Below, piece by piece: positions 20,510 to 43,682 of a stretch of 64,000 bases of DNA. The stretch is from NCBI GenBank assembly GCA_036677365.1, contig JAVBWN010000027.1, forward strand, positions 1 to 64,000. Reading direction: 5' to 3'. The DNA comes from Acholeplasma sp. (GTDB taxonomy: Bacteria; Bacillota_I; Bacilli_A; Acholeplasmatales; UBA5453). Numbering within the stretch: position 1 is the first letter of the stretch; every line of letters starts with the position of its first letter. The notes beneath the pieces are model-generated. The model did not search any database and was not told the DNA's origin. It was given only the letters and a program-made list of their open reading frames with translations. The translations under genes were made by a program, and so were the position numbers.

Positions 20510-20900
20510 AGTGCACCATTTTGACGGTATTGGGTATCAAAAATTATACCACTACCAATCTTGGCGAATTGCCATTTTAAATTACATTGAAGAACTCGAA
20601 CCTCAAAACATTCATCGTTTTCAAGCACACGATTTAACCGATGAAGCTTTTGTCTTGTTAGAAGGGGCTTGTACCTTATTCATTGTAGAAAACGATCAAA
20701 TTGTGCCCATCCATTTAGAACCAAAAAAAGTATACAACATTAAAAAAGGGGTATTTCACTCCCATACACTATCGAAAAACTGCAAATTACTCATCATCGA
20801 AGAAGAGAATACTTCAGATGAGAATTCACCAGTGATGGTGTTAACAGAAGCTCAAAAACAACAATTAATAGAATTTGCGAGGATGAATCATGGCCTTTAA
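20496..20900 (+). CDS. Cupin-fold protein of unknown function
   Basis: H..TDEAFVLLEG and KKGVFHSH cupin motifs; overlaps both neighbours. Confidence 0.75.
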   Translation: MKGIEVHHFDGIGYQKLYHYQSWRIAILNYIEELEPQNIHRFQAHDLTDEAFVLLEGACTLFIVENDQIVPIHLEPKKVYNIKKGVFHSHTLSKNCKLLIIEEENTSDENSPVMVLTEAQKQQLIEFARMNHGL

Positions 20901-25861: not shown

Positions 25862-28374
25862 AAAAAACATTTATGTTGTTAGTTTTAACGGTTTTAAGTG
25901 TTGTAACTTTGGTCGCTTGTCAAACAGAAGCCAAGTTGACTAAGATTACGTTCACAGGCGTAGCCGACGTTACAAACATCGCTTACGGTTCAGAATTTAA
26001 CGTTCTAACCGGTGTCAAAGCGATCGGTGACGATAACAAAGATTATACAGACCAAATCACTGTACAATCGGTTGCGACCATTTCAGCATCAGGCGTTTTA
26101 GATACCCAAACCGTGGGTGTTGCTGCAGTTAAATATCAAGTTAAAGTCGGCAATGTCACCGGTGAAAAGTGGCGTTATCTAACCGTATTGAATCCTACAG
26201 CTGTTGAAGGCGAAATGCTCATCAACGGAGACTTCTCCGGTGGTACAGGTGGATGGACAGACCCAGCTGTTAACTACATTTCCGATGGCGCAGAAATGAC
26301 CATTTCCGCTGACAATGGCGCGTTAAAAGTCGAAGTAGTCGCTGGTTCAAATTTATGGACACCACGTTTTGGACAAATGAACGTGCCATTTGAACAAAAC
26401 AAGACATACCAAGTCTCCTTCAGAGCAAAATCCTCTGTGGAAAAGGCAATCAACCTTCAAGTGGGTGAATTGTTAACTTCAGCACCATGGTTTACAGATT
26501 TCAAACCTGGTCAAACTGAACAAAGAACCATCACCACTGAATGGGCAACTTATTCTTACAAGTTTACACACAAGCTTGACAACAAGCGTGGTGGTATCTT
26601 ATTCGAATTGGGTACACTTAATGGACAAGCCATCAATGCTACATTATGGTTTGATGACATTGAAATCACTGAATCGACACCAGATGCCGATACTCTAGCA
26701 CCTACATTCTCTGGATTGGTCGCTGAAAGATCTGTTTTAATTGGTGCAACATTCAACCCACTTGCTGGCGTTACAGCATTTGACGTGGTTGACGGTGATG
26801 TCACTGAAAACATCGTTGTTGTGATTAAAGATGCTTCTCAAGCAGTTGTTACGGCTGTAGATACTTCCGTTGAAGGCGTATTTACCATCGAATACTCTGT
26901 TGAAGACGAAGCTGGTAACGAAGCTACATTTACAGTTACTGTATCCGTTTTAGGTATGTTATTCTCACAAACAAACATTCTTAAGAATGGTGACTTCTCA
27001 GCGCCAATCAACGAAACAACACCAGAATGGACCACATGGGGTCAAGACTGGGATGTTCCAGCTGCATTTACAAGCGGCATCGTTGATGGACAATTCCAAA
27101 TGAATATTACAAACACAGGTAATGCTGCTGGTTGGTCTATTCAATTGGTTCAAAAAGTAGATTTAGTCGAAGGTAAGACTTACCGTGCATCATTTGATGT
27201 TAAGTCCTCTGTAGCAAGAGACATCGACTTTGTCGTTACACAAGATGGCACTTATTACGAACATTTCAAACAAGCAGGCATTCAATTAACCACTGAATTC
27301 CAAACATTCCAATTCGTGTTTACTGTCGATAAGACAACGGACAATACGAAGTTCGAATTCGATTTAGGTAAGACACCAAATGGTGTACCTTCAATCATCA
27401 CATTCGATAATATTAAATTACAAGAAGCTGTTTTAGACACCTTATTGGTTAATACAACATTTGACGCTCTTGGATGGCAAGCATTCCACAACGATTGGGA
27501 AGGCTCAGTTGCATCTCTATCCGTTGTTAATGGCGAATTCAAGTATGAATTAACTAAGTATGCAGGTGGCGCAAACCCAGCATCATGGATGTTACAATTG
27601 ATTTATGGTACTAAGTTAGTGCTTGAACCAGAAACCACTTATACATTCACATTTGATGCTTATGCATCTAAAGCATTGACCTTAAACCCATTCTTTACAC
27701 AAGGTGAACCTAAAGGTTATAACAACATCGTTACTTCTGGTACTGTAGCAATTACCACAGAAAAAGCAACTTACACTGTCACTGCAACTACAGGTACAGA
27801 TATGTCATTACCATTCGAAATCAAACTTGAATTTGGTAATCAATTCGTGTCCTTTGAATCCGGTTCAGAATTCATCATGTTTGATAACCTATCCTTCAAG
27901 AAAACTGCAGGTACAGAACTATTGGTTAATGGTACAGCGCAAGAAGTATTGCAATGGACATATGACAATTCCGGTGGTGCTACTGGTAATATGCAATTAC
28001 TCAATGGTAATGCAGTCGTTACAGTTGAAACCATGGGTGCAGCTTATCAACCTCATATGTATCAAATGCTATCCGGTCTAAAAGCTGGTAACTACATGCT
28101 TAAAGTGGTTGTGACCTCATCTGTAACAAGAGACCTACGTGTTAACTTCGTTGTTCCAAACTGGGGTTATGCATCGATTCTATCTGCTGGATCACACGAT
28201 TTCAGAGCTGAAGCTAACGTTGAAAAAGTGGTTTATGTACCATTCACAGTCGCTAATGACATCACTGATCCTGTGAAGTTTGAATTTGACTTTGGTACAC
28301 TTGGTGGCGAACTCATCAGCTTACCTGGTACTTTCACCATTTCTGAAATCCTTCTTTATCAAGTCATAGCTTAG
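25858..28374 (+). CDS. Surface lipoprotein with Ig-like and about four CBM4-like carbohydrate-binding modules; no catalytic domain seen
   Basis: Lipobox LVAC; repeated L.NGDFS / Y..SF.AKSS / FELG / FDNI module patterns; DTLAPTF..AFDVVDGDVT Ig-like repeat. Confidence 0.8.
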   Translation: MKKTFMLLVLTVLSVVTLVACQTEAKLTKITFTGVADVTNIAYGSEFNVLTGVKAIGDDNKDYTDQITVQSVATISASGVLDTQTVGVAAVKYQVKVGNVTGEKWRYLTVLNPTAVEGEMLINGDFSGGTGGWTDPAVNYISDGAEMTISADNGALKVEVVAGSNLWTPRFGQMNVPFEQNKTYQVSFRAKSSVEKAINLQVGELLTSAPWFTDFKPGQTEQRTITTEWATYSYKFTHKLDNKRGGILFELGTLNGQAINATLWFDDIEITESTPDADTLAPTFSGLVAERSVLIGATFNPLAGVTAFDVVDGDVTENIVVVIKDASQAVVTAVDTSVEGVFTIEYSVEDEAGNEATFTVTVSVLGMLFSQTNILKNGDFSAPINETTPEWTTWGQDWDVPAAFTSGIVDGQFQMNITNTGNAAGWSIQLVQKVDLVEGKTYRASFDVKSSVARDIDFVVTQDGTYYEHFKQAGIQLTTEFQTFQFVFTVDKTTDNTKFEFDLGKTPNGVPSIITFDNIKLQEAVLDTLLVNTTFDALGWQAFHNDWEGSVASLSVVNGEFKYELTKYAGGANPASWMLQLIYGTKLVLEPETTYTFTFDAYASKALTLNPFFTQGEPKGYNNIVTSGTVAITTEKATYTVTATTGTDMSLPFEIKLEFGNQFVSFESGSEFIMFDNLSFKKTAGTELLVNGTAQEVLQWTYDNSGGATGNMQLLNGNAVVTVETMGAAYQPHMYQMLSGLKAGNYMLKVVVTSSVTRDLRVNFVVPNWGYASILSAGSHDFRAEANVEKVVYVPFTVANDITDPVKFEFDFGTLGGELISLPGTFTISEILLYQVIA

Positions 28375-28384: not shown

Positions 28385-29824
28385 ATGAAAAAACTATTTG
28401 CTTTACTCGTTATTTCATTGTTCGCATTGACACTCGCCGCTTGTAATGGCGGCGGTGGCAACAATGTGAAATACATTGAATTGACATACGCAGACTGGGG
28501 CGACGCTGCATTCAATCAACGCATGATTGATAAGTTTATGGAAAAATACCCTAACATCACTGTTACATTAAGACAAGATATTTCCGGTTCTGGTGCAACC
28601 TTTACTGGTAACCTTGTCACAGCAGCACAAGCAGGTTTATTGCCTGACGTATTCGCAACCGATAACGTACCAACCGTTGTAAGAGCCGGTTTAACCTTAG
28701 ACGTTGCAGAGTATTGGGATGCCGATTCAGACACCGAAATGGTTTATGAAGACGTAGCCAAAACCGCTGTTTATAATGGACACAGATATGCAGTCCCTAG
28801 TTTCCAATTCTTAAAAGGTATTTTCATCAACCTAGACATTTTTGAAGAATCTGGTTTACAATCGGTTTCTGGTAAATATCGTTTAGACGCGGATGGTTAC
28901 CCTGTTAAAGACTGGACCCACGCTGAATTCGTTGAAATTGCAAAAGCAATCACCAACTATGACATCGTGAACGTTGAAAACCTTGTGGTCGGTTTTGATA
29001 CATGGTATGGTTCCCCTGACTTCCAACAAGTATGGCCAATGATGAATTCAACTCGCTTTGGTTATGACACTTGGGATGGCACTAAATTCAACTATACTTC
29101 CCCTGAATGGATTGCAGCGATGCGCGCTAAAGTTGAAATCGACAACTACGAACTCAATCTAGGTGTCACTTCACGCTATCCGACTACTGACTGGGAAAAT
29201 ACACCTGCATTACAAACCTACGTCATCCAAGCTGGTTATGCCGCAATGGATATCGAAGGTTCTTGGCAATTCTGGGTGATCCAAGAAGCACAAGATAAAG
29301 GTATCAACATGGGCTTCTGGCCTTACCCATCGGGTTCTGAAGGATTATTCCCTCCAACCATTCTTGACTATCAAGCGATTTCTAGCCAAACCGCACACCC
29401 TGAAGAAGCATATCTACTTGCTAAATGGATGACATTTGGACAAGACGGATGGAACGCTCGTTTAGATTTATATGAAGAAGACAAAGCGGCTGCAGAAGCT
29501 GCTGGTCAAACCCCTAAATATCTAGACCGTTTCCCTGTGGCTTCATACCCTGGTGTTTGGGAAAGAGTTGCAGATTTAGTCGATGGTATCCCTGGTATCG
29601 AATATACCCTTGAACGTATTGAAAATGCACGTCCTGACCTTGACAAATGGTTGGCGGGCTATAAAGATTTCTGGGCATGGGTTAGCGATGCTGAAAATCC
29701 ATATAGCTGGGCAAATCTACAAATTGCAGGTCCGAACTCTGTTGCAGCATTTGCTGAACAATGGAATCAAAAAGCCAATGAATTGGTTCAACAAGAAATT
29801 GCCAATTTAGGTAAAGACGAATAA
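28385..29824 (+). CDS. Sugar ABC transporter substrate-binding lipoprotein
   Basis: Lipobox LAAC; FMEKYPNITV; PDVF; YAVP; NLDIFEE; AAMDIEGSW. Confidence 0.9.
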   Translation: MKKLFALLVISLFALTLAACNGGGGNNVKYIELTYADWGDAAFNQRMIDKFMEKYPNITVTLRQDISGSGATFTGNLVTAAQAGLLPDVFATDNVPTVVRAGLTLDVAEYWDADSDTEMVYEDVAKTAVYNGHRYAVPSFQFLKGIFINLDIFEESGLQSVSGKYRLDADGYPVKDWTHAEFVEIAKAITNYDIVNVENLVVGFDTWYGSPDFQQVWPMMNSTRFGYDTWDGTKFNYTSPEWIAAMRAKVEIDNYELNLGVTSRYPTTDWENTPALQTYVIQAGYAAMDIEGSWQFWVIQEAQDKGINMGFWPYPSGSEGLFPPTILDYQAISSQTAHPEEAYLLAKWMTFGQDGWNARLDLYEEDKAAAEAAGQTPKYLDRFPVASYPGVWERVADLVDGIPGIEYTLERIENARPDLDKWLAGYKDFWAWVSDAENPYSWANLQIAGPNSVAAFAEQWNQKANELVQQEIANLGKDE

Positions 29825-29835
29825 CAAACTCATGT

Positions 29836-29868
29836 GTCAAGAGGGCAAATTAAACCTGCCCTCTTGAT
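29836..29868 (+). other. Intra-operon stem-loop without a U-tract (probable mRNA stabiliser or partial terminator)
   Basis: TCAAGAGGGCA (29837-29847) / TGCCCTCTTGA (29857-29867), perfect 11-bp stem; no poly-T follows. Confidence 0.7.
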
Positions 29869-29891
29869 ATCATATCTATTGGAGGAAATCT

Positions 29892-32800
29892 ATGATTAAA
29901 CGCCTGAAAAAAATGAAATGGGTGCGCTTTTTAAGCGAATACTACCAAAAAGTCAAAGCATTTTTCATCGCTTTTGGCTTAAAGAAGACGTTATTGTCTT
30001 TGATATCTTTGGTACTGGTCGTTTATGTAGTTGCATCTTTTTTTAGAGTAGCATCAAATCATCTTTTTTTTGATGCGCGTGCGCTCACACATGCCTATGA
30101 AGACAGCGCAGCGCTCAGTTTAAGTGAATCTACTTACTCTACTGTGAAAAAAGGGTATTTAACCAACAAATATACCCACAGTTCACTCGAAGAAACGTTT
30201 AACCCAATAGATATGACAGGGTCATTAGTGACCGCACTAGAGGCACGTTATCAAGCACCGATCAATGCTTACGCTACCTACAGACCTGGTGCGAATGATA
30301 CCGTATCGGCGTATCGTAATCAAACAGACAAAGTGACTTTTTCCGTGGGGACCATCCCAACAGGGCTTTACTATATTGCTGTTGATTACTATGAACTATC
30401 TGAAAGCGTTCAAGCAACCCAAGTGGGTGTCAAAATCAATGGGACATTCCCATTTTACGAATCCAGAACACTGATTTTAGAAAGTGAATGGGTGTTTGAT
30501 AGTACTGAATTTAAACTAGACCGTTATCAAAATGAAATTCAACCAAGTTCAAGTAAACAACGTACATGGAAAACCATGATTTTACGTGACCTCAAAGGGA
30601 TGCATGCAGGGTATTATGAATTTTACTTGAAATCCAACGATGAGATTACTTTAGAACATGTGTCAGGTGAGTATTTAATTGGTCAAGTTCATTTTGTTCA
30701 AGTCGATGACTTATTAAGTTATGATGCCTACTTGAATCAACACACTGGTGCCACCGTTGTCAATAAGCTCATTCAAGTGAGTGCTAAAGATTTAGCTACC
30801 CGCAATGATGCTTCCATCCGTTTAAGAGCAGAACGTGACCCATCTTCGTTACATTATGATACTCAATTCTTAAAAATGAATACCATATTTGGTGACTCGT
30901 GGCAAAATGGTGGTCAAGCCGTTACCTATGAAATTGATGTTGAAACCGCTGGATTCTATCATATTTCATTCAAGTATCGTCAGTACATGATCAAAGACAT
31001 GCCCGTTTTTAGAAAAATATATGTCAATGGCGAAGTGCCGTTTGATTTATTAGAAAGTTATGCATTTCCATACACAACTTCATTCATACATCGCACTTTA
31101 ACCGATGAAAATAATGATGCTTTAAAGATTTATTTAGAAGCTGGTACCAACACCATCACACTTGAAGCGGTGTTGTATCCATACAGAAATACGATTGAAT
31201 CCATCAAGTACATCATGTCAGAAATCCAAGATTTGGCATTACGTATTAAGAAATATACCTCTGGTGGTACCGACCGTTATCGTGACTGGGATATTGAAAC
31301 CTATTTCCCAAATGCTGAAGGCGATATCCGCTTTTGGGCATTAGAACTCGATGATATTTATAACCATCTGTTGGTCTTGACCAATAACAACGCCCCTTCA
31401 GAAATATTGAATTTGAGGGTAGCAGCCACCAGATTACGTAGTATTGCCAATAATGTCAACAAACTACCGGGTAGAATGGTTCAATTTTCTGATGGTGACT
31501 CATCCGTTAACCAAATGCTTGGTGATTTGATGCAACGATTGATGCGTGCCAATGTTGAACTAGAAAGAACGATGGTTCATGGCGATAAAGCCTTACCAAA
31601 ACCATATGCGAACGTGTTTGTTAGCACATGGGAAGGCTTAAAACGATTGGTATTGTCTTTCATCAACAACCCATACTCTACTCAAAGAAGAGGTCAAAAT
31701 GAATTGATTGTTTGGGTAAATCACCCACGTCAATATATTGAAATCATGCAAATGATGATTGACCAATCTTATGATGGCGACATGAAAGTCACACTTTCAC
31801 AGATGCCTGACCAAAATAAACTAATTTTAGCCAACGTGGCTGGCAATTCGCCGGATGTTGCGATTGGTGTTGACCACTGGATTCCATATGAATTCGCGAT
31901 TCGTGACGCTTCATTGGATTTAAGACAATTTCAAGGGTATGCCGATTTAGTAACGAATTTTACCAAAGGTGCTATGATTCCATATGTCTTTGAAGATGGT
32001 GTTTACGGGATTCCTGAAACACAAAACTTCTGGGTTACATACTATAGAACCGATATTTTAAACTCAATTGGTATCACTGAAATCCCTCAAACTTGGGATC
32101 AAATCATTGAAATTCTCCCATTATTACAAAGCTATGGTATGAACTATTTCGTACCACTAGCACAATATGAAGGGTTAAAACCATTCGTCGCGACCTTGCC
32201 ATTCATCTATCAATTTGGTGGTGACTTATACGCTCCAAATGGGATGTCTACAGCAATCAATAGTGACCAAACCTTACGAGGTATTCAATTGATGAGTAAC
32301 TTGTATACGTTGTATAATTTACCTCAACGTGTTGCATCGTTTTATAATCAGTTTAGATACGGTACATTACCGATTGGTATTTCAGATTTATCTTCATACA
32401 TTTTATTATCGACTGCCGCTTCCGAATTGGATGGTTTATGGTCGATGGATTTACACCCTGGTGTATACAATGAACTCACCGATGAAATTGTCAGATATTC
32501 TGCAGTCGGTGCACAAGCGTCCATGATTTTATCGTCCACAAAATACAAAGAAGCCTCTTGGGATTTCTTGAGCTGGTGGATGTCCACAGAAGTTCAAAGC
32601 GATTTTGCATTCAATTTACAAACCACTTATGGTAGACAATACTTTTGGAACTCAGCCAATGTCAATGCATTCATGAATTCATCGATGCCAGAACGTTTCA
32701 AAAATGTCGTCTTAGAACAATGGACATACGGTATTGAAGCTTCACGTATTCCTGGCGCATACATGGTTGAACGTGAACTCTCCAATGCTTGGAGCAAAGT

Positions 32801-32981
32801 CGTATACAATGGTACAAACGTCAGATTAGCGCTTGATGACGCGGTTAGAATTTCTAATCGTGAAATTTTATATAAGATGGCTGAGTTTGGTTATGTCCAA
32901 AACGGGGTCATCATTAAGAATTATACAGTGCCTTCGATTTATAACATCGACTTGTGGCTAACGGAGGTAAACAATGCTTAA
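29892..32981 (+). CDS. Large membrane-anchored solute-binding protein (two CBM-like beta domains, helical linker, C-terminal SBP)
   Basis: N-terminal [11 protein letters not shown] and GFYHISFKY repeated beta modules; C-terminal [32 protein letters not shown]. Confidence 0.85.
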
Positions 32982-33858
32982 ACGTATGAATCATCCAGCA
33001 TGGTTTATTCTCCCTTACTGGATATTATTCTCACTGTTCATCATTATCCCTGTAGTGATTGCGATGGGGTTATCGTTCACATACTTTAACTCGATTCAAG
33101 CACCACGTTATATTGGGGTTACAAATTACATCGAACTCATTACGATGGACAATATTTTCATGCAAAATGTCTTGCCAAATACCGTTAAATTTGCTTTGAT
33201 TGTCGGTCCAATCGGGTATTTATTATCCTTCCTATTGGCATGGATGTTGGCTCAAATACCACAAAAACCAAGAACCGTATTGGCCATCATTTTGTATTCT
33301 CCATCCTTAACCATGGGGGTTGCAATGGCATCCATGTGGCGTATCATTTTCTCTGGGGATGCCAATGGTTATTTGAACAGCTGGCTCTTAAACTGGGGCA
33401 TCATCCTCGAACCGATACAATTCTTACAATCCCCACAATACTTGATGAACATCATGATCATCGTGTCATTGTGGAGTAGTATGGGGGTAGGGTTCTTAGC
33501 GATGTTGGCCGGGGTTTTGAATATCGACCAAACGCTTTATGAAGCCGCTTATATCGACGGTATCAAAAACCGTACACAAGAAATTTTCTACATCACCATC
33601 CCGCAAATGCGTCCTCAGATGCTATTCGGTGCGGTTATGGCGGTGGTTGGAACCTTCCAAGCCGGCGGGATTGGTGTGGCCTTATCTGGGTCAAACCCAA
33701 CACCACAATACGCTGGTCAATTGATAGTGAACCACATCGAGGACTTCGGTTTCATCCGATATGCGATGGGCTATGCTTCAGCGATCAGTGTGGTTTTATT
33801 GGCACTGGTCTACATGTTGTCTAAAGTGACTCAAAAAATTCTAGGAGAGAGGGATTAA
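32974..33858 (+). CDS. Carbohydrate ABC permease (MalF-like)
   Basis: EAA loop [15 protein letters not shown]. Confidence 0.93.
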
Positions 33859-33859
33859 T

Positions 33860-34735
33860 ATGGCTAGTTTCCAAGGCACAAAAATCAATCCGACGAGCTT
33901 CCATCGCAGTCAACTCACCTTTTATGCATTCTTGATTCCACTGTCGATTTTGATGTTATTACCCATTCTTTTCATCATTAATCATGCATTTAAACCCATT
34001 TCAGAATTGTTCGCGTATCCACCTGCATTCTTTGTTAAGAACCCAACGATGAACAACTTTACTGAATTGGCGCGCATATCAAGTGGTTCAGGGATTCCTT
34101 TTTCTCGATATTTAATCAACAGTTTATTGATAACATCGATTGGCGTATTTTTCGCCATCACCATCACCGCACTCAGTGCTTATGGTTTATCGAAACTGCA
34201 CTTCAAAGGGAAGAAGGCATTGTTTGAAATCAATACACTCGCGTTGATGTTCGTCCCGATTGCCGTTCAAATTCCAAGGTATTTGGTCATTGCGAGAATG
34301 GGTATCATCGATACTTATCTCGCTCACATTTTACCTGTGGTTGTCATGCCAGTCGCGATGTTCTTAATCAAGCAATTCATCGATCAAACACCCAACGAGT
34401 TGATTGAATCGGCGAAAATCGATGGGGCATCTGAAATGCAAATTTTCTATCACATCATCGTACCAATCGTGTCACCAGCCATCGCTACCGTAGGTATCTT
34501 GGCTTTCCAAGCGATATGGAACGATACATCGACTTCGACCATCTTTATTACCGATGAATCGAAACGAACACTCGCCTTCTATATGATGAGCTTAACCAGT
34601 TCAGTAGGGAATAATATCGCGGGTCAGGGGATGGCTGCGGCAGCGAGCTTAATCATGTTTATACCAAACTTGGTATTGTTCGTATTCTTACAAAGTAAAG
34701 TCATGAATACCATGGCACACTCGGGTATCAAATAA
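33860..34735 (+). CDS. Carbohydrate ABC permease (MalG-like)
   Basis: ELIESAKIDGAS; WND. Confidence 0.93.
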   Translation: MASFQGTKINPTSFHRSQLTFYAFLIPLSILMLLPILFIINHAFKPISELFAYPPAFFVKNPTMNNFTELARISSGSGIPFSRYLINSLLITSIGVFFAITITALSAYGLSKLHFKGKKALFEINTLALMFVPIAVQIPRYLVIARMGIIDTYLAHILPVVVMPVAMFLIKQFIDQTPNELIESAKIDGASEMQIFYHIIVPIVSPAIATVGILAFQAIWNDTSTSTIFITDESKRTLAFYMMSLTSSVGNNIAGQGMAAAASLIMFIPNLVLFVFLQSKVMNTMAHSGIK

Positions 34736-36771
34736 TGAAAAAATTACTGATTGCAGCACTATTCATCCTCGTTTGTCTCCTCCCAGTCAACGTCGATGCC
34801 AACAATGGTATTCCGTATTACACATTTACGTACTCCTCGACACAACGTCGTATCGTACCTACACAAGATGCATATTTGCCGTTATCGATTACTTCTGAGA
34901 TTGGTGGTTATATCCTCAATTCACCAGAAGATATCACGATTGACAAGCAGAATAATATTTACATTGCTGACACAAAAAATGGCCGTGTCATCAAATATAA
35001 CATTCAGTCTAATGTTGCAACCCTCATCGGAGATGGATTTTTAACCAGTCCAATGGGTGTTCATGTTGGGTTAGATGGCGCAGTATATGTCGTCGATTTT
35101 ACACATAAAAAAGCATATAAGTATGTGTATGATCAATCCAACGATAGTTACGATTTGACCGTTACGTATGAAAGACCTGTCAATTCACCTTATTTCGCAC
35201 CATCCGATACATTTGAACCAACCAAAGTCATCACTGACTCTGGGAATAACGTATACCTGTTATTGGCAGGTTCCATCAATGGGTTAGCCGAATATAAGAA
35301 TGATGGTGAGTTCTTTGGATTCTTCGGTGCAAACCGTATTCCAAACACTTGGGACAACATCATCAAGTCATTATTATTCGATGAACAACAACGTCGTGAA
35401 TGGTTTAAAATGATTCCTAAAGCTTTGAACAATGTGGCTGTTGACCAAGATGGTTTGATCTTAACGATTACCAATGGCCAATCCGGTTACTTGAAACTCA
35501 ACATCGCAAACTTGGTATTCAGCCAATCCAACTGGGGTTTTGAGAATTTGATGGATCTTTATGTAGGTCCTCACAACACCATCTTTACAATCAATGCTGA
35601 AGGCTACATCACAGAATATACCCAAGAAGGACAAACTTTATTCATCTTTGCAGGTCCAGATAAGTCCTCGAATACCAAAGGGTTGTTCAACTCACCAACC
35701 GCCATTGCTGTCGATGCGAGAAACAATATTTATGCCCTCGATAAATCGACATCGTCATTGCAAATCTTTGTCCCTACAGCATTTGCTGATTTGGTACATA
35801 ACGCCATTACGTTATATCAAGCTGGTAAATACAGCGAATCCGAAGAACCTTGGAAACAAGTATTAAAGATGAATAGCTTATTTGATTTGGCCAACAAAGG
35901 CATTGGTGATGCGCATTTTGCTAAAGGTGAATATGAAGATGCGATGCACTATTATGCATTGTCTCGTCATCTTGAAGGTTATTCAAATGCCTATTGGGAA
36001 GTGAGAAATACAGCATTACTCGCATCCGCTTCTTGGTTGGTTTATGTCATTTTTGCCATGATCATACTTACCATTGTCAATCGATTCCTACCATTCATGA
36101 AGTATGTTAAAGCACCTATCAAGAAATCGCATGCTTATATGAAACGGTTTAAATTGTACAATGAATTGTTGTTTGGTTTCCATGTGTTGAGAAATCCAAA
36201 CGATGGTTATTATGGTATCAAACGCGAAGGTAAAACTTCAAACTTATCCGCAACGATTTACCTATTCACATTCTTTTTGATGTATATCATTTTCATCTAC
36301 ACCACCTCATTCTTGTTTAATGACCGTGTCGTCGCTGAAATCAATATGATCCAACAAGTCATTACCGTTTTCATCCCATTCTTCCTATGGGTCATTGCGA
36401 ACTACTTGGTATGTAGCATTCGTGATGGTGAAGGTAAATTGAGTGATGTCTATCAATCGAGTGCCTATGCTTTATTACCAATGATTATTTCCTTACCAAT
36501 CCTCGCGTTCATTTCGCATGGATTGACATTGAATGAAGCATTCATTTATACATTCTTATTCAACGTTTCTGTGATGATTACCGTGATTTACCTCATCGTC
36601 ATGGTCAAAGAAATTCATTTCTATGAGATGAAGAAAACCATCGCCAACATCTTCATTACAATTTTTACCGCATTGATGATTTTATTGATGGTATCGATTG
36701 TTTACATCTTATTGAGTGAAATTTTACAAGTATTCTTAGATATATATAGGGAGGTGACCTCACGTGCTTAA
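34735..36771 (+). CDS. NHL beta-propeller + TPR + YIP1-like multi-TM protein
   Basis: Signal peptide; NSPEDI..IYIADT.NGRV and FNSPTAIAVD NHL repeats; TPR-like LYQAGKY..W..VL; about 6 C-terminal TM with GEGK motif. Confidence 0.8.
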   Translation: MKKLLIAALFILVCLLPVNVDANNGIPYYTFTYSSTQRRIVPTQDAYLPLSITSEIGGYILNSPEDITIDKQNNIYIADTKNGRVIKYNIQSNVATLIGDGFLTSPMGVHVGLDGAVYVVDFTHKKAYKYVYDQSNDSYDLTVTYERPVNSPYFAPSDTFEPTKVITDSGNNVYLLLAGSINGLAEYKNDGEFFGFFGANRIPNTWDNIIKSLLFDEQQRREWFKMIPKALNNVAVDQDGLILTITNGQSGYLKLNIANLVFSQSNWGFENLMDLYVGPHNTIFTINAEGYITEYTQEGQTLFIFAGPDKSSNTKGLFNSPTAIAVDARNNIYALDKSTSSLQIFVPTAFADLVHNAITLYQAGKYSESEEPWKQVLKMNSLFDLANKGIGDAHFAKGEYEDAMHYYALSRHLEGYSNAYWEVRNTALLASASWLVYVIFAMIILTIVNRFLPFMKYVKAPIKKSHAYMKRFKLYNELLFGFHVLRNPNDGYYGIKREGKTSNLSATIYLFTFFLMYIIFIYTTSFLFNDRVVAEINMIQQVITVFIPFFLWVIANYLVCSIRDGEGKLSDVYQSSAYALLPMIISLPILAFISHGLTLNEAFIYTFLFNVSVMITVIYLIVMVKEIHFYEMKKTIANIFITIFTALMILLMVSIVYILLSEILQVFLDIYREVTSRA

Positions 36772-39181
36772 AATTGTTAAATACCTGATTGTAGTCGTAA
36801 CATTCAGTGCCCTAACGTTCACTGTGGTCAACGCTGCCACCCAAGACAATGCTTATGAGATTGTATTATCGGATAACTTTGGTTACATTGAACAAATGGT
36901 ATTACAAAGCTCGAGATATACCCAACCTGATAATATAACCCCAGCGGCATTACAGGATTATCGCGATAATTACACTTTGTCTTTCACAACCGATGAACTG
37001 GCGTTTCTAGGTTATGAAGAAATCTTAAATGATTCAAAATTACGTGTTTATTTTGAACAAAAATCATTTTCAGTCGTCATTGAAAACAAAGAAACTGGAT
37101 ACTTTTGGTCATCGCGTGCTGAATTCCAACACATCGAAGGCACCAATGAAACCCCACTCTTTAGAAATATGATGAATTCAGGTTTATGGATTGAATCGGT
37201 TCGAATGCTCACCAATGGTGGCGCTCCCATCAATATCAATGAAAAATCTTTAACCACCGAGTCGCTATACCGTATCGCAGGTGTGGCTTATCCAAACGAT
37301 GAGTCCTTAATTGATTTATATCCAGAATGCCCGACAGGGTATGCAAGTTCCAATGTGTGTTCACAAGTCATCATCCCAGAAAGATACAATCAAAGTCGTG
37401 TCCGTGTGGATCGTGTCTCTACAACAACATCCGCCATTGTTACCAAAGTCAATATTTTTGAATATGGGTTCTCATTTAACGTAGAACTACGTCTCGAAGA
37501 TGGTGTCTTTAAGTCGAGAGTATTCTCAGACACCATTCAAGAATCAGACCCTAAATTTAAATTGACTGGCATATATTTATTCCCATACTTGGGTTCTACA
37601 CGTAAGGACAAAACCCCGGGTTATTTCTTAATTCCTGATGGTGTGGGTGCTTTGGTTCGTATCAATCAAATGCATGGAGATTCATTCCAAAGCCGTTTCT
37701 ATGGTTCAGAGTTTGGATACGATTCCTATACCACCAGTCAATTGACCATGCCGATTTATGGTATTGTCCATGAAGTCGGTGGCAATGGGTTTTATGCCGA
37801 TATCACTGAAGGGTCTGAACAAGGCATTCTATATGCCGATTTATATGGCGCAAACACCCGTTACAATTATATGCGCACCAAGTATAGTGTCCGCGAATTG
37901 TACCGAAGAATCATCAATGCTTCAGGTGGTGGGTCTTTAACACTACTGGATCAGTTCACACAAACCGATTACGCCATCGACTATCACTTTTTAGGTGGTT
38001 CAGATGCTTCCTATGTTGGGATTGCGAAAAACTACCGTGATAAATTGCGTGATGCAGGTGTTTTAAAAGACATGGTTGAACCAAGCACCAATATCCCAAT
38101 TCATCTCAACTACTTAATGGCAGATACTGAAAATGCCTTCATTGGTGTTAGACGTATTCGCATGACGCGCATTAAAGATGTTTTGGATATTTATGAAACA
38201 TTAAAAGAAGCCGGTGTCACCAATCAAATGGTCACCTTGCATGGTTGGAGTAAAGATGGTAATGGTGTTGGATTGGCTCGAACCAATTTAAATGAATCTA
38301 AACGTACGTTTGAAAAATTGGCCGATACACTGGCTGAAGATGGCAACACAGTCTATCTGTATAATGATTATGTGGTGGCATCAGACTCAAAACGTGTCAA
38401 CTACATCAACGACATTGCAAGAAATGTGTCTAGATTAAAAATGACTTATAGCAACCGTTCATTTAGCGGTGTTGAATCGAACATTCAGTTATTATACCCA
38501 GAAGCTACGGCGAAAAAATTAAAAGCGGACGCTTCATTCTACGATAAATTGGGGTATGGTGCAGAAGTAGGTTCTATTGGTAATATGTTATTCAGCTACT
38601 ACGACAACAAAGTATTTGAACGTGGTGACGCGATGAATTATTACCAAGAAGCCTTATCAAACTATGATCATTTGATATTATCTAGCCCTAACAGTTATTT
38701 ATGGCAATACATGAGTGGTTATACCGATATGGCCGTAACCAATGGACAGTTTAATTTCTACACGGACTTGGTTCCTGTATTACCGATTGTTTTATCTGGA
38801 AGTGTGCCAATGTTTACCCCATTCTTAAATTTCAATGCCTTGGGTAGTGAACGTTTATTGATGATGATTGATTTTGGTATCAACCCACGATATATTCTCA
38901 CAGAGGAAAATACCTATAAGATGCGTTACACACGTTCATCCAATCTGTACACCACAGCCATTAAGGATTACGAAACAGAAATCATCGATACCTATCATTA
39001 CATCAATGATGCTTTAAAACACGTGGTTGGTGCCATGGTTGTCGAACGCGAAGTGCTTGGTTTAGGTATTGTAAAAGTAACTTATGACAATGGTGTGTCG
39101 ATTTATATCAATTACAGTGACCAAATATTTATGAATCCGGATGTCATCTTATTTGGTAAATCGTATGAGGTGGTCCTATGA
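36764..39181 (+). CDS. Secreted DUF5696-like protein
   Basis: GTG start with GGAGG RBS; signal peptide; TGYFWSS; PYLGS; GYFLIPDGVGAL; MPIYG; YVGIAKNYR; GW; VPVLPIVL.G; VTYDNG..IYINY. Confidence 0.75.
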   Translation: MLKIVKYLIVVVTFSALTFTVVNAATQDNAYEIVLSDNFGYIEQMVLQSSRYTQPDNITPAALQDYRDNYTLSFTTDELAFLGYEEILNDSKLRVYFEQKSFSVVIENKETGYFWSSRAEFQHIEGTNETPLFRNMMNSGLWIESVRMLTNGGAPININEKSLTTESLYRIAGVAYPNDESLIDLYPECPTGYASSNVCSQVIIPERYNQSRVRVDRVSTTTSAIVTKVNIFEYGFSFNVELRLEDGVFKSRVFSDTIQESDPKFKLTGIYLFPYLGSTRKDKTPGYFLIPDGVGALVRINQMHGDSFQSRFYGSEFGYDSYTTSQLTMPIYGIVHEVGGNGFYADITEGSEQGILYADLYGANTRYNYMRTKYSVRELYRRIINASGGGSLTLLDQFTQTDYAIDYHFLGGSDASYVGIAKNYRDKLRDAGVLKDMVEPSTNIPIHLNYLMADTENAFIGVRRIRMTRIKDVLDIYETLKEAGVTNQMVTLHGWSKDGNGVGLARTNLNESKRTFEKLADTLAEDGNTVYLYNDYVVASDSKRVNYINDIARNVSRLKMTYSNRSFSGVESNIQLLYPEATAKKLKADASFYDKLGYGAEVGSIGNMLFSYYDNKVFERGDAMNYYQEALSNYDHLILSSPNSYLWQYMSGYTDMAVTNGQFNFYTDLVPVLPIVLSGSVPMFTPFLNFNALGSERLLMMIDFGINPRYILTEENTYKMRYTRSSNLYTTAIKDYETEIIDTYHYINDALKHVVGAMVVEREVLGLGIVKVTYDNGVSIYINYSDQIFMNPDVILFGKSYEVVL

Positions 39182-40152
39182 AAAAACAAAACATAGCCCC
39201 GAAAACCCTTGATAAAACCCCTAAAGTGAAACGTGCAAGCCGATTGACCCGAAAACAAAGAGAATATCTTCATGGGTTCGCATTTATCGGTTTATGGTTA
39301 TTTGGATATTTGGTATTTACCTTTTACCCAATGCTTAAATCATTTTATCTAACATTCACCAAATCGTTTTATAACATCAACCGTGGGATTTACCAAGTGG
39401 AATTCAATGTCGGTCAAGGCAATTTATTTGGATTTTCTAACTATATCAACATCGTTAGAAGTCAAACACTTTTACCATTATTTAGTGACTACTTAGCCAG
39501 AATCATCATTGCAGTCCCTCTCATCATCGTGTTCTCTATTATGATTTCGATGCTGATTAATTTGCCCATTAAAGGCAAAGGATTGTGGCGTACGATATTC
39601 TTCCTTCCAGTCATTATTTCATCCGGTCCTGTCATTTCTGAATTATCACGTCAAGAAGCAACCAGTTTACCATCAATTCAAGAATCGGCTGCTTTACAGT
39701 TCATTTTTACCAACTTGGGTGAATGGATTGCAAGACCGTTAGAAGCGTTGTTTTCTTCCTTATTGCTCATTTTATGGTATGCTGGTGTACCGATTCTCAT
39801 CTTCCTGGCTGGTCTTCAAAAGATTGACTCTTCCGTATATGAAGCCGCATCCATCGACGGTGCATCCCCTTGGGATCGTTTTTGGAAAATTACGCTACCT
39901 TCAATCAAACCATTGATCTCTGTCGCCATCATTTATGTGGTTGTCTCGATGTCTTTATTCGTAGAAGAAGGCGGCATTCTCGCCATCACCCGAACACACA
40001 TGTTGAACGGGGCACCGGATTCACAAGTATGGCTTGGTTATGGCTACGCAGCGACCATCGCATGGATTTATTTCATCCTGATGGTTCTGGTGATGGTCGT
40101 ATTCATTGGCCTACTCTCGATTAAGCGAAAAGAGGTGAAACGATGGGGTTAA
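39178..40152 (+). CDS. Carbohydrate ABC permease (second MalF-like)
   Basis: FLAGLQ; YEAASIDGAS; FWKITLP; GYAA. Confidence 0.93.
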   Translation: MKKQNIAPKTLDKTPKVKRASRLTRKQREYLHGFAFIGLWLFGYLVFTFYPMLKSFYLTFTKSFYNINRGIYQVEFNVGQGNLFGFSNYINIVRSQTLLPLFSDYLARIIIAVPLIIVFSIMISMLINLPIKGKGLWRTIFFLPVIISSGPVISELSRQEATSLPSIQESAALQFIFTNLGEWIARPLEALFSSLLLILWYAGVPILIFLAGLQKIDSSVYEAASIDGASPWDRFWKITLPSIKPLISVAIIYVVVSMSLFVEEGGILAITRTHMLNGAPDSQVWLGYGYAATIAWIYFILMVLVMVVFIGLLSIKRKEVKRWG

Positions 40153-41129
40153 TCGCTAAACTCAAAGACCGCGTCGGTGACCAACACCATCGCAAAGTCA
40201 AAATTAAAAAACTCTTATTAGGGATGAATTTGACCGATGGTTTATTATTCAAAATAGCCATCTATACCTTACTCATCAGTTTCGCTTATGTATACTTATA
40301 TCCACTTTTATTCATGTTGGTCAACTCATTTAAAACGGTAGATGACCTCATTGACCCAGGTGTCAAATGGATTCCAACCACCATCGAAATTGAAAACTAT
40401 AACCGTGCATTCAAAGTATTGGCGTTGCCAAGATCGATTTTTGGTACTTTGGGTTATGTCCTTAAAGTGTCCATCGCATCGACAGTCACTTCCGCTTTGG
40501 TGGGTTATGGATTCGCAAAATTCGAATTTCCATTCAAAAAGACTTTATTCGTCTTGATGTTGGCAACCTTCATTTTGCCACCACAAGTGACCATGGTTAC
40601 CAACATTGAAATCTTCAATGCTTTAGGCAAGAGTGTTCCATTTGTTTGGATTGGTGGGTTCATGAGTTCACAAAACGCCATGTTCTTCCCAGCTTTATTT
40701 GGTCAAGGCTTGAATCAATCGATTTTCATTTTGATTTTCTATCAATTTTTCAAAACCATTCCACAAGTATTGATGGAATCGGCTGAAATTGATGGTGCAG
40801 GTCAGTTCAAAATTTTCACCAAAATCGCATTACCATCAGCCATACCTTCGATTGTGATCGTTTTCCTTTTCGCAACCGTTTGGTATTGGAATGAAACGTT
40901 TATGACCGCGCTTTATGTCGGTGGTAACGTGACGATGCCTTTACGTTTAGTACAGTTTGTATCGTCGTATGAAACATTATATCCGCCTGGAACCCTCGGT
41001 TCTGAACTCAATGAAGCCATTCGTTTGGCTGGTAACATGGTTTCCATTTTGCCATTGTTGTTGCTCTATTTCGTCGCACAAAAACAATTCACTGAAAGTA
41101 TTGACCGTACTGGTATCACAGGTGAGTAA
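40143..41129 (+). CDS. Carbohydrate ABC permease (second MalG-like)
   Basis: MESAEIDGAG; VWYWNE; QKQFTESIDRTGITG. Confidence 0.93.
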   Translation: MGLIAKLKDRVGDQHHRKVKIKKLLLGMNLTDGLLFKIAIYTLLISFAYVYLYPLLFMLVNSFKTVDDLIDPGVKWIPTTIEIENYNRAFKVLALPRSIFGTLGYVLKVSIASTVTSALVGYGFAKFEFPFKKTLFVLMLATFILPPQVTMVTNIEIFNALGKSVPFVWIGGFMSSQNAMFFPALFGQGLNQSIFILIFYQFFKTIPQVLMESAEIDGAGQFKIFTKIALPSAIPSIVIVFLFATVWYWNETFMTALYVGGNVTMPLRLVQFVSSYETLYPPGTLGSELNEAIRLAGNMVSILPLLLLYFVAQKQFTESIDRTGITGE

Positions 41130-41140: not shown

Positions 41141-42253
41141 ATGAAAAAAATCAATTTACTCGTATTATTTGTGCTGGCCATCGTTTTGGTCGCATGTACA
41201 AAAGAACCCAGTCTACCCCCGTTGGAAAGTGCTGAAGATTGCAACGAAAAAACACTCGAAGGTGGTTGGGTGTGTGTTTGGGCCGATGAATTTGAAGGCA
41301 CAGAAGTCGATTTAACCAAGTGGACGTATGAAGTCAATGGCTATGGTGGCGGTAACAATGAGTTACAATACTACACCGCAGACAACACGGTGGTTCAAGA
41401 TTCCATATTAAGCATCATCGCGAAGAAAGAAGTTTATTTAGGCAAACAATATACCTCTAGCCGTATCGTATCCAAATACAAAGGGGATTGGACCTATGGT
41501 CGTTTCATCATTCGTGCGAAGAACCCAGTGGGTGGCGGTACATGGCCTGCCATTTGGATGATGCCAACCATGAATGCATATGGTGGTTGGCCAAAGAGCG
41601 GTGAAATTGACATCATGGAATATGTGGGCAATAACCCAACCAAAGTTTCGGGTACAGTCCATACTGAAATCCGTAATGGTGGCAACACCCCAGTCCGTGA
41701 ATATACTTTACCAACCGCGAATTCTGAATTTCACAACTATGAAGTTCAATGGGAACCAGGCACCATCCGTTGGTATGTCGATGGTGTAAAATTCAATGAA
41801 GTTATTTACACCCCACAATTCACCCAACAATACAAATACAATCAAGTTTTCCCATTTGATCAAAACTTCTTCATGATTTTGAATCTAGCAATTGGTGGTA
41901 CTTTGGGTGGTAATGTCGATGATTCGATTTTCCCTACCGCTTTTGAAGTCGATTATGTCCGCGTTTATCAACGTGATTATGGTCAAATCGATAAAGAAGC
42001 CCCATCAAAAGTGACGGATATCAGCTTACAACAACTCGCCAATACGATATATTGGAAGCGTCCAGATGATGATTTTGGCGTCGAAAAGTTCAACATTTAT
42101 ATCGATGGTGAATTTAAAGGGGTTGCAAGACTCAATCAATTCACATTTGGTGGCTTAACCAAGGGACAAACCTACAGCATTCGCATTGAAGCGGTTGACT
42201 TTAGAGGTCGTGTTTCTAAATTGAGTGAACCATTCAGCTTTACATTTCAATAA
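41141..42253 (+). CDS. GH16 beta-1,3-glucanase lipoprotein with C-terminal FN3 domain
   Basis: Lipobox LVAC; GNNELQYY; WPAIWM; WPKSGEIDIME; FN3 pattern W..P.DD..V..F...GLT.G.TY.I. Confidence 0.92.
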   Translation: MKKINLLVLFVLAIVLVACTKEPSLPPLESAEDCNEKTLEGGWVCVWADEFEGTEVDLTKWTYEVNGYGGGNNELQYYTADNTVVQDSILSIIAKKEVYLGKQYTSSRIVSKYKGDWTYGRFIIRAKNPVGGGTWPAIWMMPTMNAYGGWPKSGEIDIMEYVGNNPTKVSGTVHTEIRNGGNTPVREYTLPTANSEFHNYEVQWEPGTIRWYVDGVKFNEVIYTPQFTQQYKYNQVFPFDQNFFMILNLAIGGTLGGNVDDSIFPTAFEVDYVRVYQRDYGQIDKEAPSKVTDISLQQLANTIYWKRPDDDFGVEKFNIYIDGEFKGVARLNQFTFGGLTKGQTYSIRIEAVDFRGRVSKLSEPFSFTFQ

Positions 42254-42259: not shown

Positions 42260-42293
42260 AAAACCGTTAAGTCGATAGGACCTAACGGTTTTT
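42260..42293. terminator. Bidirectional terminator ending the glucan operon and ppi
   Basis: AAAACCGTTA...TAACGGTTTT. Confidence 0.85.
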
Positions 42294-42952: not shown

Positions 42953-43675
42953 ATGGCTAAATTTAAACTGGCTTTTGAAGAAAACTTTGATTATACTGGG
43001 CAGCCTGACCCAGCGGTATGGACATATCAGGTCGGACCCAAATGGGCAAACAATGAAAAACAATGTTACGTCGATTTTAAAGAAAATTGTTTTGTCAAAG
43101 ATGGTGCATTAAATATCATCGCGACCAAAACCAATGACCCAGGGTGTCCATACCACTCGGCAAGATTGATGACTAAAGATAAAAAACACTTTCAATATGG
43201 TCGTTTTGTCGTTAGAGCGAAGATGCCACAAGGGCGTGGGGCATGGCCTGCAGTTTGGTTTTTAGGCACGACGAAAGAACACCGATGGCCAGCGATGGGT
43301 GAAATCGATTTATTGGAATTTGCAGGTAATCGTAAAAACCAAGTGACGTGTGCCATTCATACGCAAACCTATAACCACAAGATCGATACACATAAAGGGG
43401 CAACCCACAAAATGACCGACTTAGAGGGACAATTCCACGATTATATCTTAGAATGGACACCCGACTATTTATCATTTCAAGTCGATTATCATGAAATTCT
43501 TAAAGTCGAAAAACAACCGAACGATACATTTGCTGAGTGGCCATTTGATCAACCCTACTACATGATTGTCAATCTCGCTGTGGGTGGTTGGTATGCGGGT
43601 GAAATCGTGGATAAAGATTTACCATTTCACTTTGAAGTAGCTTTCATTCGCCATTATGAGCTTATAGAAGCATAA
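42953..43675 (+). CDS. GH16 beta-1,3-glucanase-like protein, cytoplasmic
   Basis: WANNEKQ; WPAVW; WPAMGEIDLLE; VNLAVGG; no signal peptide. Confidence 0.9.
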   Translation: MAKFKLAFEENFDYTGQPDPAVWTYQVGPKWANNEKQCYVDFKENCFVKDGALNIIATKTNDPGCPYHSARLMTKDKKHFQYGRFVVRAKMPQGRGAWPAVWFLGTTKEHRWPAMGEIDLLEFAGNRKNQVTCAIHTQTYNHKIDTHKGATHKMTDLEGQFHDYILEWTPDYLSFQVDYHEILKVEKQPNDTFAEWPFDQPYYMIVNLAVGGWYAGEIVDKDLPFHFEVAFIRHYELIEA

Positions 43676-43682
43676 AAGCCGT

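Follow-up and report, generated by a model that had tools for sequence, protein, structure and literature searches.

ATP-binding cassette (ABC) importers of the CUT1 class that share an orphan ATPase, including MalEFGK2, the MsmX-dependent systems of Firmicutes, and the Listeria innocua beta-1,2-glucooligosaccharide system (PDB entries 5ysb-5ysf), are the described transporters closest to the system considered here. That system is an eight-gene cassette at positions 28385-41129, all on the + strand, of a 64-kb stretch of DNA (64,000 nucleotides (nt) of contig JAVBWN010000027.1 from an Acholeplasma sp., hereafter the window). In order, its genes encode a small solute-binding protein (small SBP), a giant membrane-anchored SBP (bigSBP), the permease pair P1a and P1b, a protein composed of NHL, TPR, and Yip1 domains (NTY), a DUF5696 protein, and a second permease pair, P2a and P2b. 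Like the CUT1 systems named above, the cassette has family-1 SBPs, MalF/MalG-like permease pairs with EAA loops, and no local ATPase gene. Unlike them, it always holds two permease pairs and two SBPs together; one SBP lies behind a transmembrane anchor and an N-terminal module (N-module) of about 520 residues; NTY and DUF5696 stand at fixed positions; and the two permease pairs differ greatly in their degree of conservation. We class the cassette as ABC importers whose obligatory accessory components are uncharacterised and whose parts evolve at two speeds.

Other described systems are similar in single respects. The SusCD utilisome and the loci of Bacteroidota likewise co-locate a glycan-binding lipoprotein, a surface endo-glycanase, a transporter, a regulator, and intracellular exo-enzymes; unlike them, the present system uses ABC permeases in a single membrane, and neither a TonB-dependent barrel nor a SusD-like protein was found among 53 window open reading frames (ORFs; 18 + 35 scanned with Pfam and NCBIfam). 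Accordingly, the comparison with SusCD drawn by the first-pass annotation, a reading of the letters of the window, is retained as a functional analogy; as homology it fails, no Sus relationship having been seen. Bacillus YknWXYZ also has a Yip1-domain membrane protein encoded with an ABC transporter, as described in PMC4887032. However, YknYZ is an exporter of the MacB type accompanied by a membrane-fusion protein, whereas the cassette encodes type-I importers and its Yip1 domain is fused to an NHL propeller and TPR; no MacB-type or membrane-fusion-protein domain occurs among the scanned window ORFs, and Yip1 is the only element common to both. The glycosidases of families GH129 and GH101 (Zobellia 3,6-anhydro-D-galactosidase, 5opq; Bifidobacterium NagBb, 5wzn; EngBF; SpGH101) share a three-domain architecture with the predicted DUF5696 structure, from which they differ by about 12% identity, the lack of a glycoside hydrolase (GH) Pfam match in DUF5696, and its constant position within a transporter operon. 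Furthermore, the GH161/GH94 clusters of Acholeplasma and Paenibacillus combine GH161, GH94, GH16, and ABC genes without a nucleotide-binding domain (NBD), and the accessible passages of PMC6484121 describe GH161 clusters and a Listeria system with ABC transporter genes but no ATPase gene, as well as an A. laidlawii GH161 cluster with "two permease components" and a "missing" SBP. No double permease set, giant SBP, NTY, or DUF5696 is named in these passages, though the figures and supplements of that article may show them. RefSeq labels the proteins extracellular solute-binding protein, sugar ABC transporter permease, YIP1 family protein, NHL repeat-containing protein, and DUF5696 domain-containing protein. 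Neither "DUF5696" nor "PF18952" retrieved any paper in the literature searches, no publication on the cassette was found, and the combination of a double importer, a giant tethered SBP, NTY, and DUF5696 is, as far as found, absent from the literature. The reading that we regard as somewhat probable is that two CUT1-like importers powered by an ATPase encoded elsewhere, together with NTY and a glycosidase-like DUF5696 protein, form an uptake core for laminarin.

The gene content, order, and coordinates given for 28385-41129 in the first-pass annotation were confirmed by the ORFs, Pfam, and PDB matches. The tight spacing that it had reported from 29892 onward was also recovered from the ORF list: successive genes are joined by an 8-nt overlap, a 1-nt gap, and overlaps of 1, 8, 4, and 10 nt, and the edges of the cassette are looser, with 67 nt between the small SBP gene and 29892 and 11 nt between P2b and 41141. 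This arrangement is conserved. Species-representative genomes were scanned with a DUF5696 alignment, which gave at least 600 pattern matches, at least 543 of which encode a DUF5696 relative; the synteny set consists of the best 80 of these relatives, each taken with no more than 10 kb of DNA to either side, and falls into Bacillota (38 loci), Chloroflexota (20), Mycoplasmatota (19), and three unassigned loci. Genes were called mechanically from unfiltered six-frame ORFs, and each denominator is the number of loci whose DNA extends far enough in the direction in question. NTY lies directly upstream of DUF5696 in 74/74 loci and P2a-P2b directly downstream in 65/65, with no exceptions. P1a-P1b precedes NTY in 62 of 65 loci, the others being L023, which is without P1a, and L035 and L046, where NTY is called as two ORFs and only the register is shifted. 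bigSBP is in place in 53 of 56 (absent in L023, split in L024, register shift in L035), and in 50 of 52 loci the seven genes of the core follow one another in order (exceptions L023 and L035). The small SBP is found upstream in 41/46 loci (exceptions L023, L041, L042, L067, and L072) and either upstream or directly after P2b in 40/41 (exception L023). The only real break in the core among the 52 loci is L023, a Chloroflexota metagenome-assembled genome (MAG) in which, upstream of 7576, the small SBP, bigSBP, and P1a are absent and a fragment of P1b is left; NTY, DUF5696, P2a, and P2b remain intact despite this upstream loss. Recurrence of one gene order in three phyla goes beyond chance, and the cassette is a conserved functional unit. 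Co-conservation of the accessory genes with the double permease set had been named in the first-pass annotation as a refutation test, and it holds at the rates given above for both junctions and the core; the accessory proteins therefore almost certainly work with the transporters.

The surroundings of the cassette vary. Of 115 flanking ORFs listed for 30 loci, 87, belonging to 26 loci, were scanned with Pfam, and the annotated proteins were then searched across the 80 loci. PF10091, which we take to comprise GH144-type beta-1,2-glucanases, flanks 35/80 loci, often with GH35-like proteins (25), GH3 (15), GH94 (13), or SOGP (7), the last being 1,2-beta-oligoglucan phosphorylase according to its Pfam name. 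GH16, the type of the window, flanks 15 loci, GH31 six (with GH65 alongside in two), GH130 two, and GH43 one, and two FAD-dependent oxidoreductase genes flank a further one (L018). Judged from these neighbours, sister cassettes appear to adjoin enzyme sets of beta-1,2-glucan, alpha-glucan, mannoside, and arabinan type. The dedication of the machinery to beta-1,3-glucan, as proposed in the first-pass annotation, is consequently abandoned: the same architecture occurs beside other enzyme sets, and only the clade of the window is linked to GH16.

Trees of the four permeases, built as were the conservation and co-variation analyses from 33 complete cassettes, sort by flank class and not by taxonomy. 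All 12 GH16-linked cassettes (12/12) lie on one side of a branch with a FastTree local support of 97 and an IQ-TREE SH-aLRT (Shimodaira-Hasegawa-like approximate likelihood ratio test) value of 88. Five flank-class labels require four changes on the tree, which is the minimum and was reached in 0/200 shuffles. Approximately unbiased (AU) tests reject a single clade for the 10 Acholeplasmataceae rows (p 2.2e-58) and for the eight Bacillales rows (p 1.8e-7), p-values that are weakened by the choice of the groups after the first tree had been viewed. The GH130 and GH31 pairs are two long branches that join each other, a grouping that is not trustworthy.

A plasmid of Paenibacillus cellulosilyticus carries an annotated cassette (L082, 2789-24055). 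Its neighbours are four flavin oxidoreductases of the LLM class, one NADPH-dependent oxidoreductase, and two additional SBPs; the absence of any glycoside hydrolase from the 24 kb shown, together with these flanks, hints at a non-glycan or oxidised substrate. The two FAD-dependent oxidoreductases of L018 occupy similar positions.

Both SBPs of the cassette appear, by sequence and, for bigSBP, also by predicted structure, to be of the family-1 kind used by CUT1-like importers. The small SBP has no Pfam match and matches the solved family-1 SBP 22hh in a PDB sequence search (E 3.3e-19); a lipobox is present in 30/33 of its orthologues. bigSBP has a single hydrophobic segment at residues 33-51 and Pfam matches to SBP_bac_1/SBP_bac_8 at about 630-906 (SBP_bac_1 E 2.7e-13). 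Its model (pLDDT 86.1), which like all structures discussed here is a prediction, begins with a transmembrane helix (30-50), continues with two beta-sandwiches (about 138-270 and 294-427) and a bundle of helices (about 429-550), and ends in an SBP fold (about 604-1000). In Foldseek, the SBP part resembles cycloisomaltooligosaccharide-, beta-1,2-glucooligosaccharide-, and maltodextrin-binding proteins (9xf5, E 4.2e-19; 5ysb, TM-score 0.81; MalE-type SBPs, TM-score up to 0.83 by target). The "CBM-CBM-SBP" fusion of the first-pass annotation is therefore upheld for the anchor and the SBP domain, and its pair of carbohydrate-binding modules (CBMs) is weakly supported: the sole CBM match is CBM_35 at E 6.3e-4, under the Pfam cut-off, beside the two predicted beta-sandwiches. 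The N-module belongs to no named family, its Atlas neighbours being unnamed clusters only, and a search for stand-alone, shorter forms gave 21 proteins, mostly fragments from short contigs or partial records.

All four permeases match BPD_transp_1 (PF00528) above the cut-off and, judged by their sequences, retain the EAA coupling loop, detected by script in P1b, P2a, and P2b and by eye from the translation in P1a. P1a of the window is 66% identical to P1a of a Chloroflexota cassette of beta-1,2 type; with P2a, or with an ordinary CUT1 permease of L057, it shares only about 24-27% identity. A recent duplication of P1 as the origin of P2 was ruled out, the identity of about 25% being equal to that of an unrelated CUT1 pair. 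The lack of an ATPase gene noted in the first pass applies to the entire window: no importer-type ATPase was found in the 64 kb, in which ABC_tran matches are confined to two fused exporter half-transporters at 208-3930. The cognate ATP-binding subunit of a CUT1-like importer is accordingly not encoded locally. An NBD-like ORF was seen in 2/80 related loci, beyond the cassette end in both, and a single ugpC gene lies directly upstream of bigSBP in the P. cellulosilyticus plasmid cassette. A borrowed orphan ATPase is known in the CUT1 class (PMC6484121), and one ATPase encoded elsewhere may power both importers. Save for this locally missing subunit, each importer half has the sequence features of the CUT1 type, and transport itself is predicted.

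NTY is predicted to consist of a signal peptide, an extracytoplasmic NHL propeller with TPR, one transmembrane segment, a basic loop, and a multi-span Yip1 domain. The Yip1 match (PF04893) scores 44.2 bits against a cut-off of 28.6 over residues 482-653, which are hydrophobic in a multi-span pattern, and one NHL repeat of the window protein is above threshold. Among 23 aligned orthologues, Yip1 is matched in 23, NHL in 22, and a propeller model of the SMP-30/gluconolactonase-like type in 11. This architecture is widespread, with 1043 cluster representatives at E <= 1e-30, mostly of about 660-700 residues and aligned end to end. In Butyrivibrio fibrisolvens plasmid pNP243 (L081, 8189-10284), where a GH43 gene precedes bigSBP, NTY is encoded by two overlapping genes, for an NHL repeat-containing protein of 498 residues and a YIP1 family protein of 206 residues; the split falls at the cytoplasmic loop and may be either natural or a frameshift. 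The Bacillus Yip1 protein YknW is reported to modulate ABC transporter assembly (PMC4887032), and this role and the split in Butyrivibrio would both fit a modular membrane scaffold. As a separate observation, a protein of 4911 residues (P0082) matches the NTY ectodomain in 43 separate stretches and is a giant NHL-repeat protein; another, of 3680 residues, does so in 21.

The DUF5696 protein, called "DUF5696-like" in the first pass, proved to be a full-length member of PF18952 itself (E 4.2e-124; 415.7 bits, where 25.6 is the cut-off; match to positions 13-601 of the 612-position model). An N-terminal hydrophobic segment is present in 32/33 cassettes and a lipobox in none, and a search for longer proteins gave no fusion forms, which is weak evidence. 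The model, built with 21 sequences (pLDDT 84.3, pTM 0.86), comprises a beta-sandwich, an alpha/beta barrel, and a C-terminal beta domain, and is predicted to fold like the GH129/GH101 glycosidases: Foldseek lists GH129 enzymes, followed by GH101, GH36, and GH31, at about 12% identity (5opq, E 9.6e-32, TM-score 0.56 by query and 0.67 by target; 5wzn, TM-score 0.70 by target), and in the Atlas it lies next to clusters of GH101 and GH129 (0.91). Sequence comparisons are far weaker. A DUF5696 profile against PDB sequences gave a marginal match to NagBb (E 0.17 over the barrel start) with a weak hLxGWxxxG match, the profile-profile probability with six GH31 enzymes of related loci is 0.1%, and no Pfam GH family, including GH129 and GH101, was found at E <= 0.01, so that the protein belongs to none of these families by sequence. 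D292, part of a GYxxIPDGxGA motif in the beta-rich region that precedes the barrel, is the sole invariant acidic residue (74/74 sequences); in the barrel region, D or E occupies position 703 in 100%, 668 in 93%, and 454 in 92% of the 74. Column 601, after the strand numbered beta-4 tentatively from the model and without superposition, is Ala or Ser in 58/74 sequences and offers no conserved acidic residue.

These properties bear on the best-surviving alternative, in which the cassette would be two ordinary CUT1 importers acting independently, one perhaps for short and the other for long oligosaccharides, next to a surface enzyme: DUF5696 would be an active glycosidase, representing a new family akin to GH129/GH101, and NTY an unrelated membrane protein, with no joint complex and a gene order that reflects co-regulation and inheritance as a block. 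The confident GH129/GH101/GH36/GH31-type predicted fold, the invariant D292 with the largely or always acidic positions 668 and 703, and the coupled appearance of all four permeases speak for it. On the other hand, one and the same DUF5696 architecture accompanies enzyme sets of beta-1,3-, beta-1,2-, and alpha-glucan, mannoside, and arabinan type, which is hard to reconcile with a single glycosidic specificity; the missing acidic residue after the tentatively numbered beta-4 and the missing GH family match do not suit an active enzyme; and the NTY-DUF5696 and DUF5696-P2 junctions, without exception in three phyla, are judged tighter than is usual for co-regulation alone. We consider this alternative unlikely.

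The two importers are not equivalent, the bigSBP-P1a-P1b unit being by its sequences far more conserved than the small SBP with P2a-P2b. Across the cassettes, the median pairwise identity of P1a is 0.65 and that of P1b 0.59, with 41.8% and 32.6%, respectively, of positions at least 90% identical, and the SBP domain of bigSBP follows with 0.48 and 20.0% (46 of these positions polar or aromatic, 8 of them Trp). The corresponding values are 0.46 and 19.2% for P2b, 0.41 and 13.0% for P2a, 0.35 and 12.9% for the NTY ectodomain, 0.33 and 7.5% for its Yip1 part, 0.28 and 5.0% for the N-module of bigSBP, 0.27 and 6.4% for DUF5696, and 0.26 and 4.4% for the small SBP; the whole-protein medians of NTY and bigSBP are 0.34 and 0.37. 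Between flank classes, too, identity falls furthest in the small SBP, with a ratio of 0.63, whereas the other components have ratios of 0.77-0.89. After removal of the common trend, residual correlations of the identity matrices connect the C-terminal domain of bigSBP with P1a and P1b (0.53-0.57), P2a with P2b (0.41), and the N-module with the NTY ectodomain and DUF5696 (0.57-0.59), which the small SBP joins weakly (0.25-0.44).

In another reading, bigSBP-P1a-P1b would be a conserved ATP-driven sensor ("transceptor") or mechanical engine, and no nutrient importer, acting through the N-module, NTY, and DUF5696, with uptake left to the small SBP and P2a/P2b. Conservation of P1a, P1b, and the bigSBP SBP domain across substrates, beside a small SBP that varies, favours this idea, as do the close similarity of P1a to its Chloroflexota counterpart as compared with an ordinary CUT1 permease and the distance between P1 and P2. 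Nevertheless, P1a and P1b have an ordinary type-I importer fold signature with EAA loops, the SBP domain of bigSBP resembles genuine oligosaccharide-binding proteins, and the locus has its own LacI regulator, so that a separate sensor is not needed; we know of no type-I importer that works as a sensor or engine. We rate the idea as rather improbable. That NTY and DUF5696, neither of which has an assigned function, are mere passengers with no glycan role, embedded in the operon by chance and serving, for example, envelope or cell-wall maintenance, is very improbable in view of their strict adjacency in three phyla and their co-divergence with the transport genes by substrate class; a cell-wall role in particular is rejected, the cassette being complete, with both genes retained, in lineages named Mollicutes, which are wall-less.

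In the favoured reading of a laminarin uptake core, the CBM_4_9 lipoprotein and the GH16-Fn3 lipoprotein encoded beside the cassette would hold laminarin outside the cell and cut it into long fragments. The small SBP would confer substrate specificity and probably serves P2a/P2b, because its gene lies directly after P2b in L042, L054, L065, and L076, and two SBP genes have that place in Butyrivibrio fibrisolvens pNP243. The membrane-anchored bigSBP is assigned to P1a/P1b, because it is always adjacent to them and co-varies with them, and the three would form a constant unit with a task independent of the substrate. NTY, DUF5696, and the N-module of bigSBP may constitute an extracytoplasmic accessory part that enables the handling of long chains. 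In the cytoplasm, endo-cleavage by the two GH16 enzymes without signals and phosphorolysis, with GH161 and GH94, would complete the breakdown. Support for large substrates comes from the distribution of signals. In related loci, the gene after P2b encodes an endo-glycanase with a lipoprotein signal, and a paralogue without a signal is encoded at a greater distance; among complete flanking ORFs, signal-like N-termini were counted in 13/19 GH16 and 34/61 PF10091 proteins (a few of these false, from internal hydrophobic stretches) and in 0/25 GH35-like, 0/14 GH3, and 0/4 SOGP proteins, and in the window both short GH16s, GH161, and GH94 are without signals. Signal-less endo-glucanases are sensible only if chains that need endo-cleavage enter the cell, which suggests the uptake of large fragments.

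Several considerations weigh against this picture. Substrates are read only from the flanking genes, the SBPs are paired with their permeases by gene position and co-variation only, and the length of the imported chain, the roles of NTY and DUF5696, and a joint physical complex of the cassette proteins are likewise matters that we infer. On the single stoichiometric surface complex proposed in the first-pass annotation, translational coupling and co-variation bear only indirectly. The co-variation of the extracytoplasmic parts could reflect a shared substrate or history in place of contact, and locus pairs are non-independent, so that these correlations serve as leads only. DUF5696 may simply be a surface enzyme, given its invariant D292 and always acidic positions such as 703. 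The 80 best-scoring loci of at least 543 lean toward relatives of the window protein, and with oxidoreductase flanks in two loci "glycan uptake" may be too narrow a description for the whole family.

The conservation of bigSBP-P1 across substrates, which is unexplained, is the main reason for weighing a broader proposal, which we put forward tentatively and consider doubtful. According to it, single-membrane bacteria would have a modular machine for the uptake of long or cyclic glycans, in which a constant ATP-driven core (bigSBP, P1a/P1b, NTY, and a catalytically retired or re-purposed GH129-like DUF5696 as surface platform) feeds chains to an exchangeable half (lipoprotein SBPs with P2a/P2b). 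The unit as a whole would have been transferred among Bacillota, Mycoplasmatota, and Chloroflexota and adapted there to different substrates, among them beta-1,3-, beta-1,2-, and alpha-glucans. The capture and import of large glycans without an outer membrane is far less understood than the Sus-type process of Bacteroidota, and the cassette is a concrete and widespread candidate for it, with a DUF5696 relative encoded in at least 543 species-representative genomes and three phyla among the best 80. By its flanks for laminarin, beta-1,2-glucan, alpha-glucan, and other glycans, it is relevant to marine carbon turnover and to fibre use in rumen and gut. To judge from the searched literature, DUF5696 had until now been assigned neither a predicted fold class nor a genomic context, and if the accessory proteins prove necessary for the uptake of long chains, they would represent a new class of accessory subunits for ABC importers.

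In Gram-positive bacteria, a polysaccharide utilisation locus is recognised by a glycan-degrading enzyme, a transporter, and a regulator encoded together. These genes are present at 17999-43675 (about 25.7 kb), where four GH16 genes, GH161, GH94, and a LacI regulator are co-located with the ABC cassette (Table 1). That the whole region is a beta-1,3-glucan (laminarin) utilisation locus with the cassette as its uptake core is our favoured, though not firm, interpretation. Long-stemmed terminator-like hairpins are found at two sites only, after 42253 and after 43675, none comparable lying within the cassette. A promoter scan was uninformative (51 sites against 61.5 expected from shuffles).

Table 1. 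Features of the region 17999-43675 of the window.
Feature	Position	Strand	Evidence and remarks
GH94-type phosphorylase, 836 aa	17999..20509	+	Pfam Glyco_hydro_94 E 1.5e-20, GH94 supersandwich; N-terminus not hydrophobic, no signal peptide; outside cassette
134-aa ORF	20496-20900	+	No Pfam match; between GH94 and first cytoplasmic GH16, overlapping both
GH16 endo-glucanase, 243 aa	20890..21621	+	Pfam Glyco_hydro_16 E 3e-21; N-terminus not hydrophobic, predicted cytoplasmic
LacI-family regulator	21618..22634	+	Pfam LacI and Peripla_BP_3; NCBIfam LacI-family matches all under equivalog cut-offs
GH161 beta-1,3-glucan phosphorylase, 1022 aa	22793..25861	+	PDB 9qqk E 4.6e-218, residues 6-1019; no transmembrane or signal segment, predicted cytoplasmic
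Surface lipoprotein, candidate glycan-capture protein	25858..28374	+	CBM_4_9 E 7.9e-39 in three stretches, Ig-like domain, lipobox
Small SBP, lipoprotein, 479 aa	28385..29824	+	Lipobox; match to PDB 22hh
bigSBP, 1029 aa	29892..32981	+	Transmembrane anchor, two beta-sandwiches, helical bundle, C-terminal MalE-type SBP domain (predicted)
Permease P1a, MalF/UgpA-type, 294 aa	32974..33858	+	BPD_transp_1; six hydrophobic segments
Permease P1b, MalG/UgpE-type, 291 aa	33860..34735	+	BPD_transp_1; EAA loop at 183
NTY, 678 aa	34735..36771	+	Pfam NHL, TPR_16, Yip1; hydrophobic segments
DUF5696 protein, 805 aa	36764..39181	+	PF18952; N-terminal signal or anchor
Permease P2a, 324 aa	39178..40152	+	BPD_transp_1; EAA loop at 222
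Permease P2b, 328 aa	40143..41129	+	BPD_transp_1; EAA loop at 212
GH16 endo-beta-1,3-glucanase lipoprotein with Fn3	41141..42253	+	Pfam Glyco_hydro_16 and fn3; lipobox, predicted surface
Terminator-like hairpin, strong	42260..42292	.	14-bp stem; operon end
Cyclophilin-type peptidyl-prolyl isomerase gene	42296-42820	-	Between GH16-Fn3 and last cytoplasmic GH16; hairpin region 42260-42292 common to operon end
Second signal-less GH16	42953..43675	+	Pfam Glyco_hydro_16 E 3.2e-24; N-terminus not hydrophobic, predicted cytoplasmic; terminator-like hairpin 43674-43698

The G+C content of the window is about 0.40, and the named relatives of its DUF5696 protein are Acholeplasmataceae MAGs. Mollicutes lack a cell wall, and the many lipoproteins in the window fit a wall-less host; the host is probably Acholeplasmataceae-like and wall-less.

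Elsewhere in the window, a TPP (thiamine pyrophosphate) riboswitch (RF00059; its 63.4 bits exceed the gathering score, 54.3) at 13981-14077 (+) lies directly 5' of a Thia_YuaJ/ECF-type thiamine transporter gene at 14123-14668. A redox cluster of the Rnf/Nqr type occupies 6522-10387 (-) with NQR2_RnfD_RnfE, FMN_bind, two Rnf-Nqr subunits, and a 2Fe-2S/FAD/NAD-binding subunit, which is unusual enough to be mentioned for a small Mollicute-like genome. Next to it, at 4029-6482 (+), a protein of 817 residues fuses a pyridine-nucleotide disulphide oxidoreductase with Rhodanese, TusA, and DsrE-like parts, an architecture of the sulfur-carrier type. RsgI systems of clostridia are glycan sensors; at 53915-57126 (-), two neighbouring paralogues of 464 and 455 residues have an RsgI-like anti-sigma central domain and lie beside a small sigma-70 region-2 protein.

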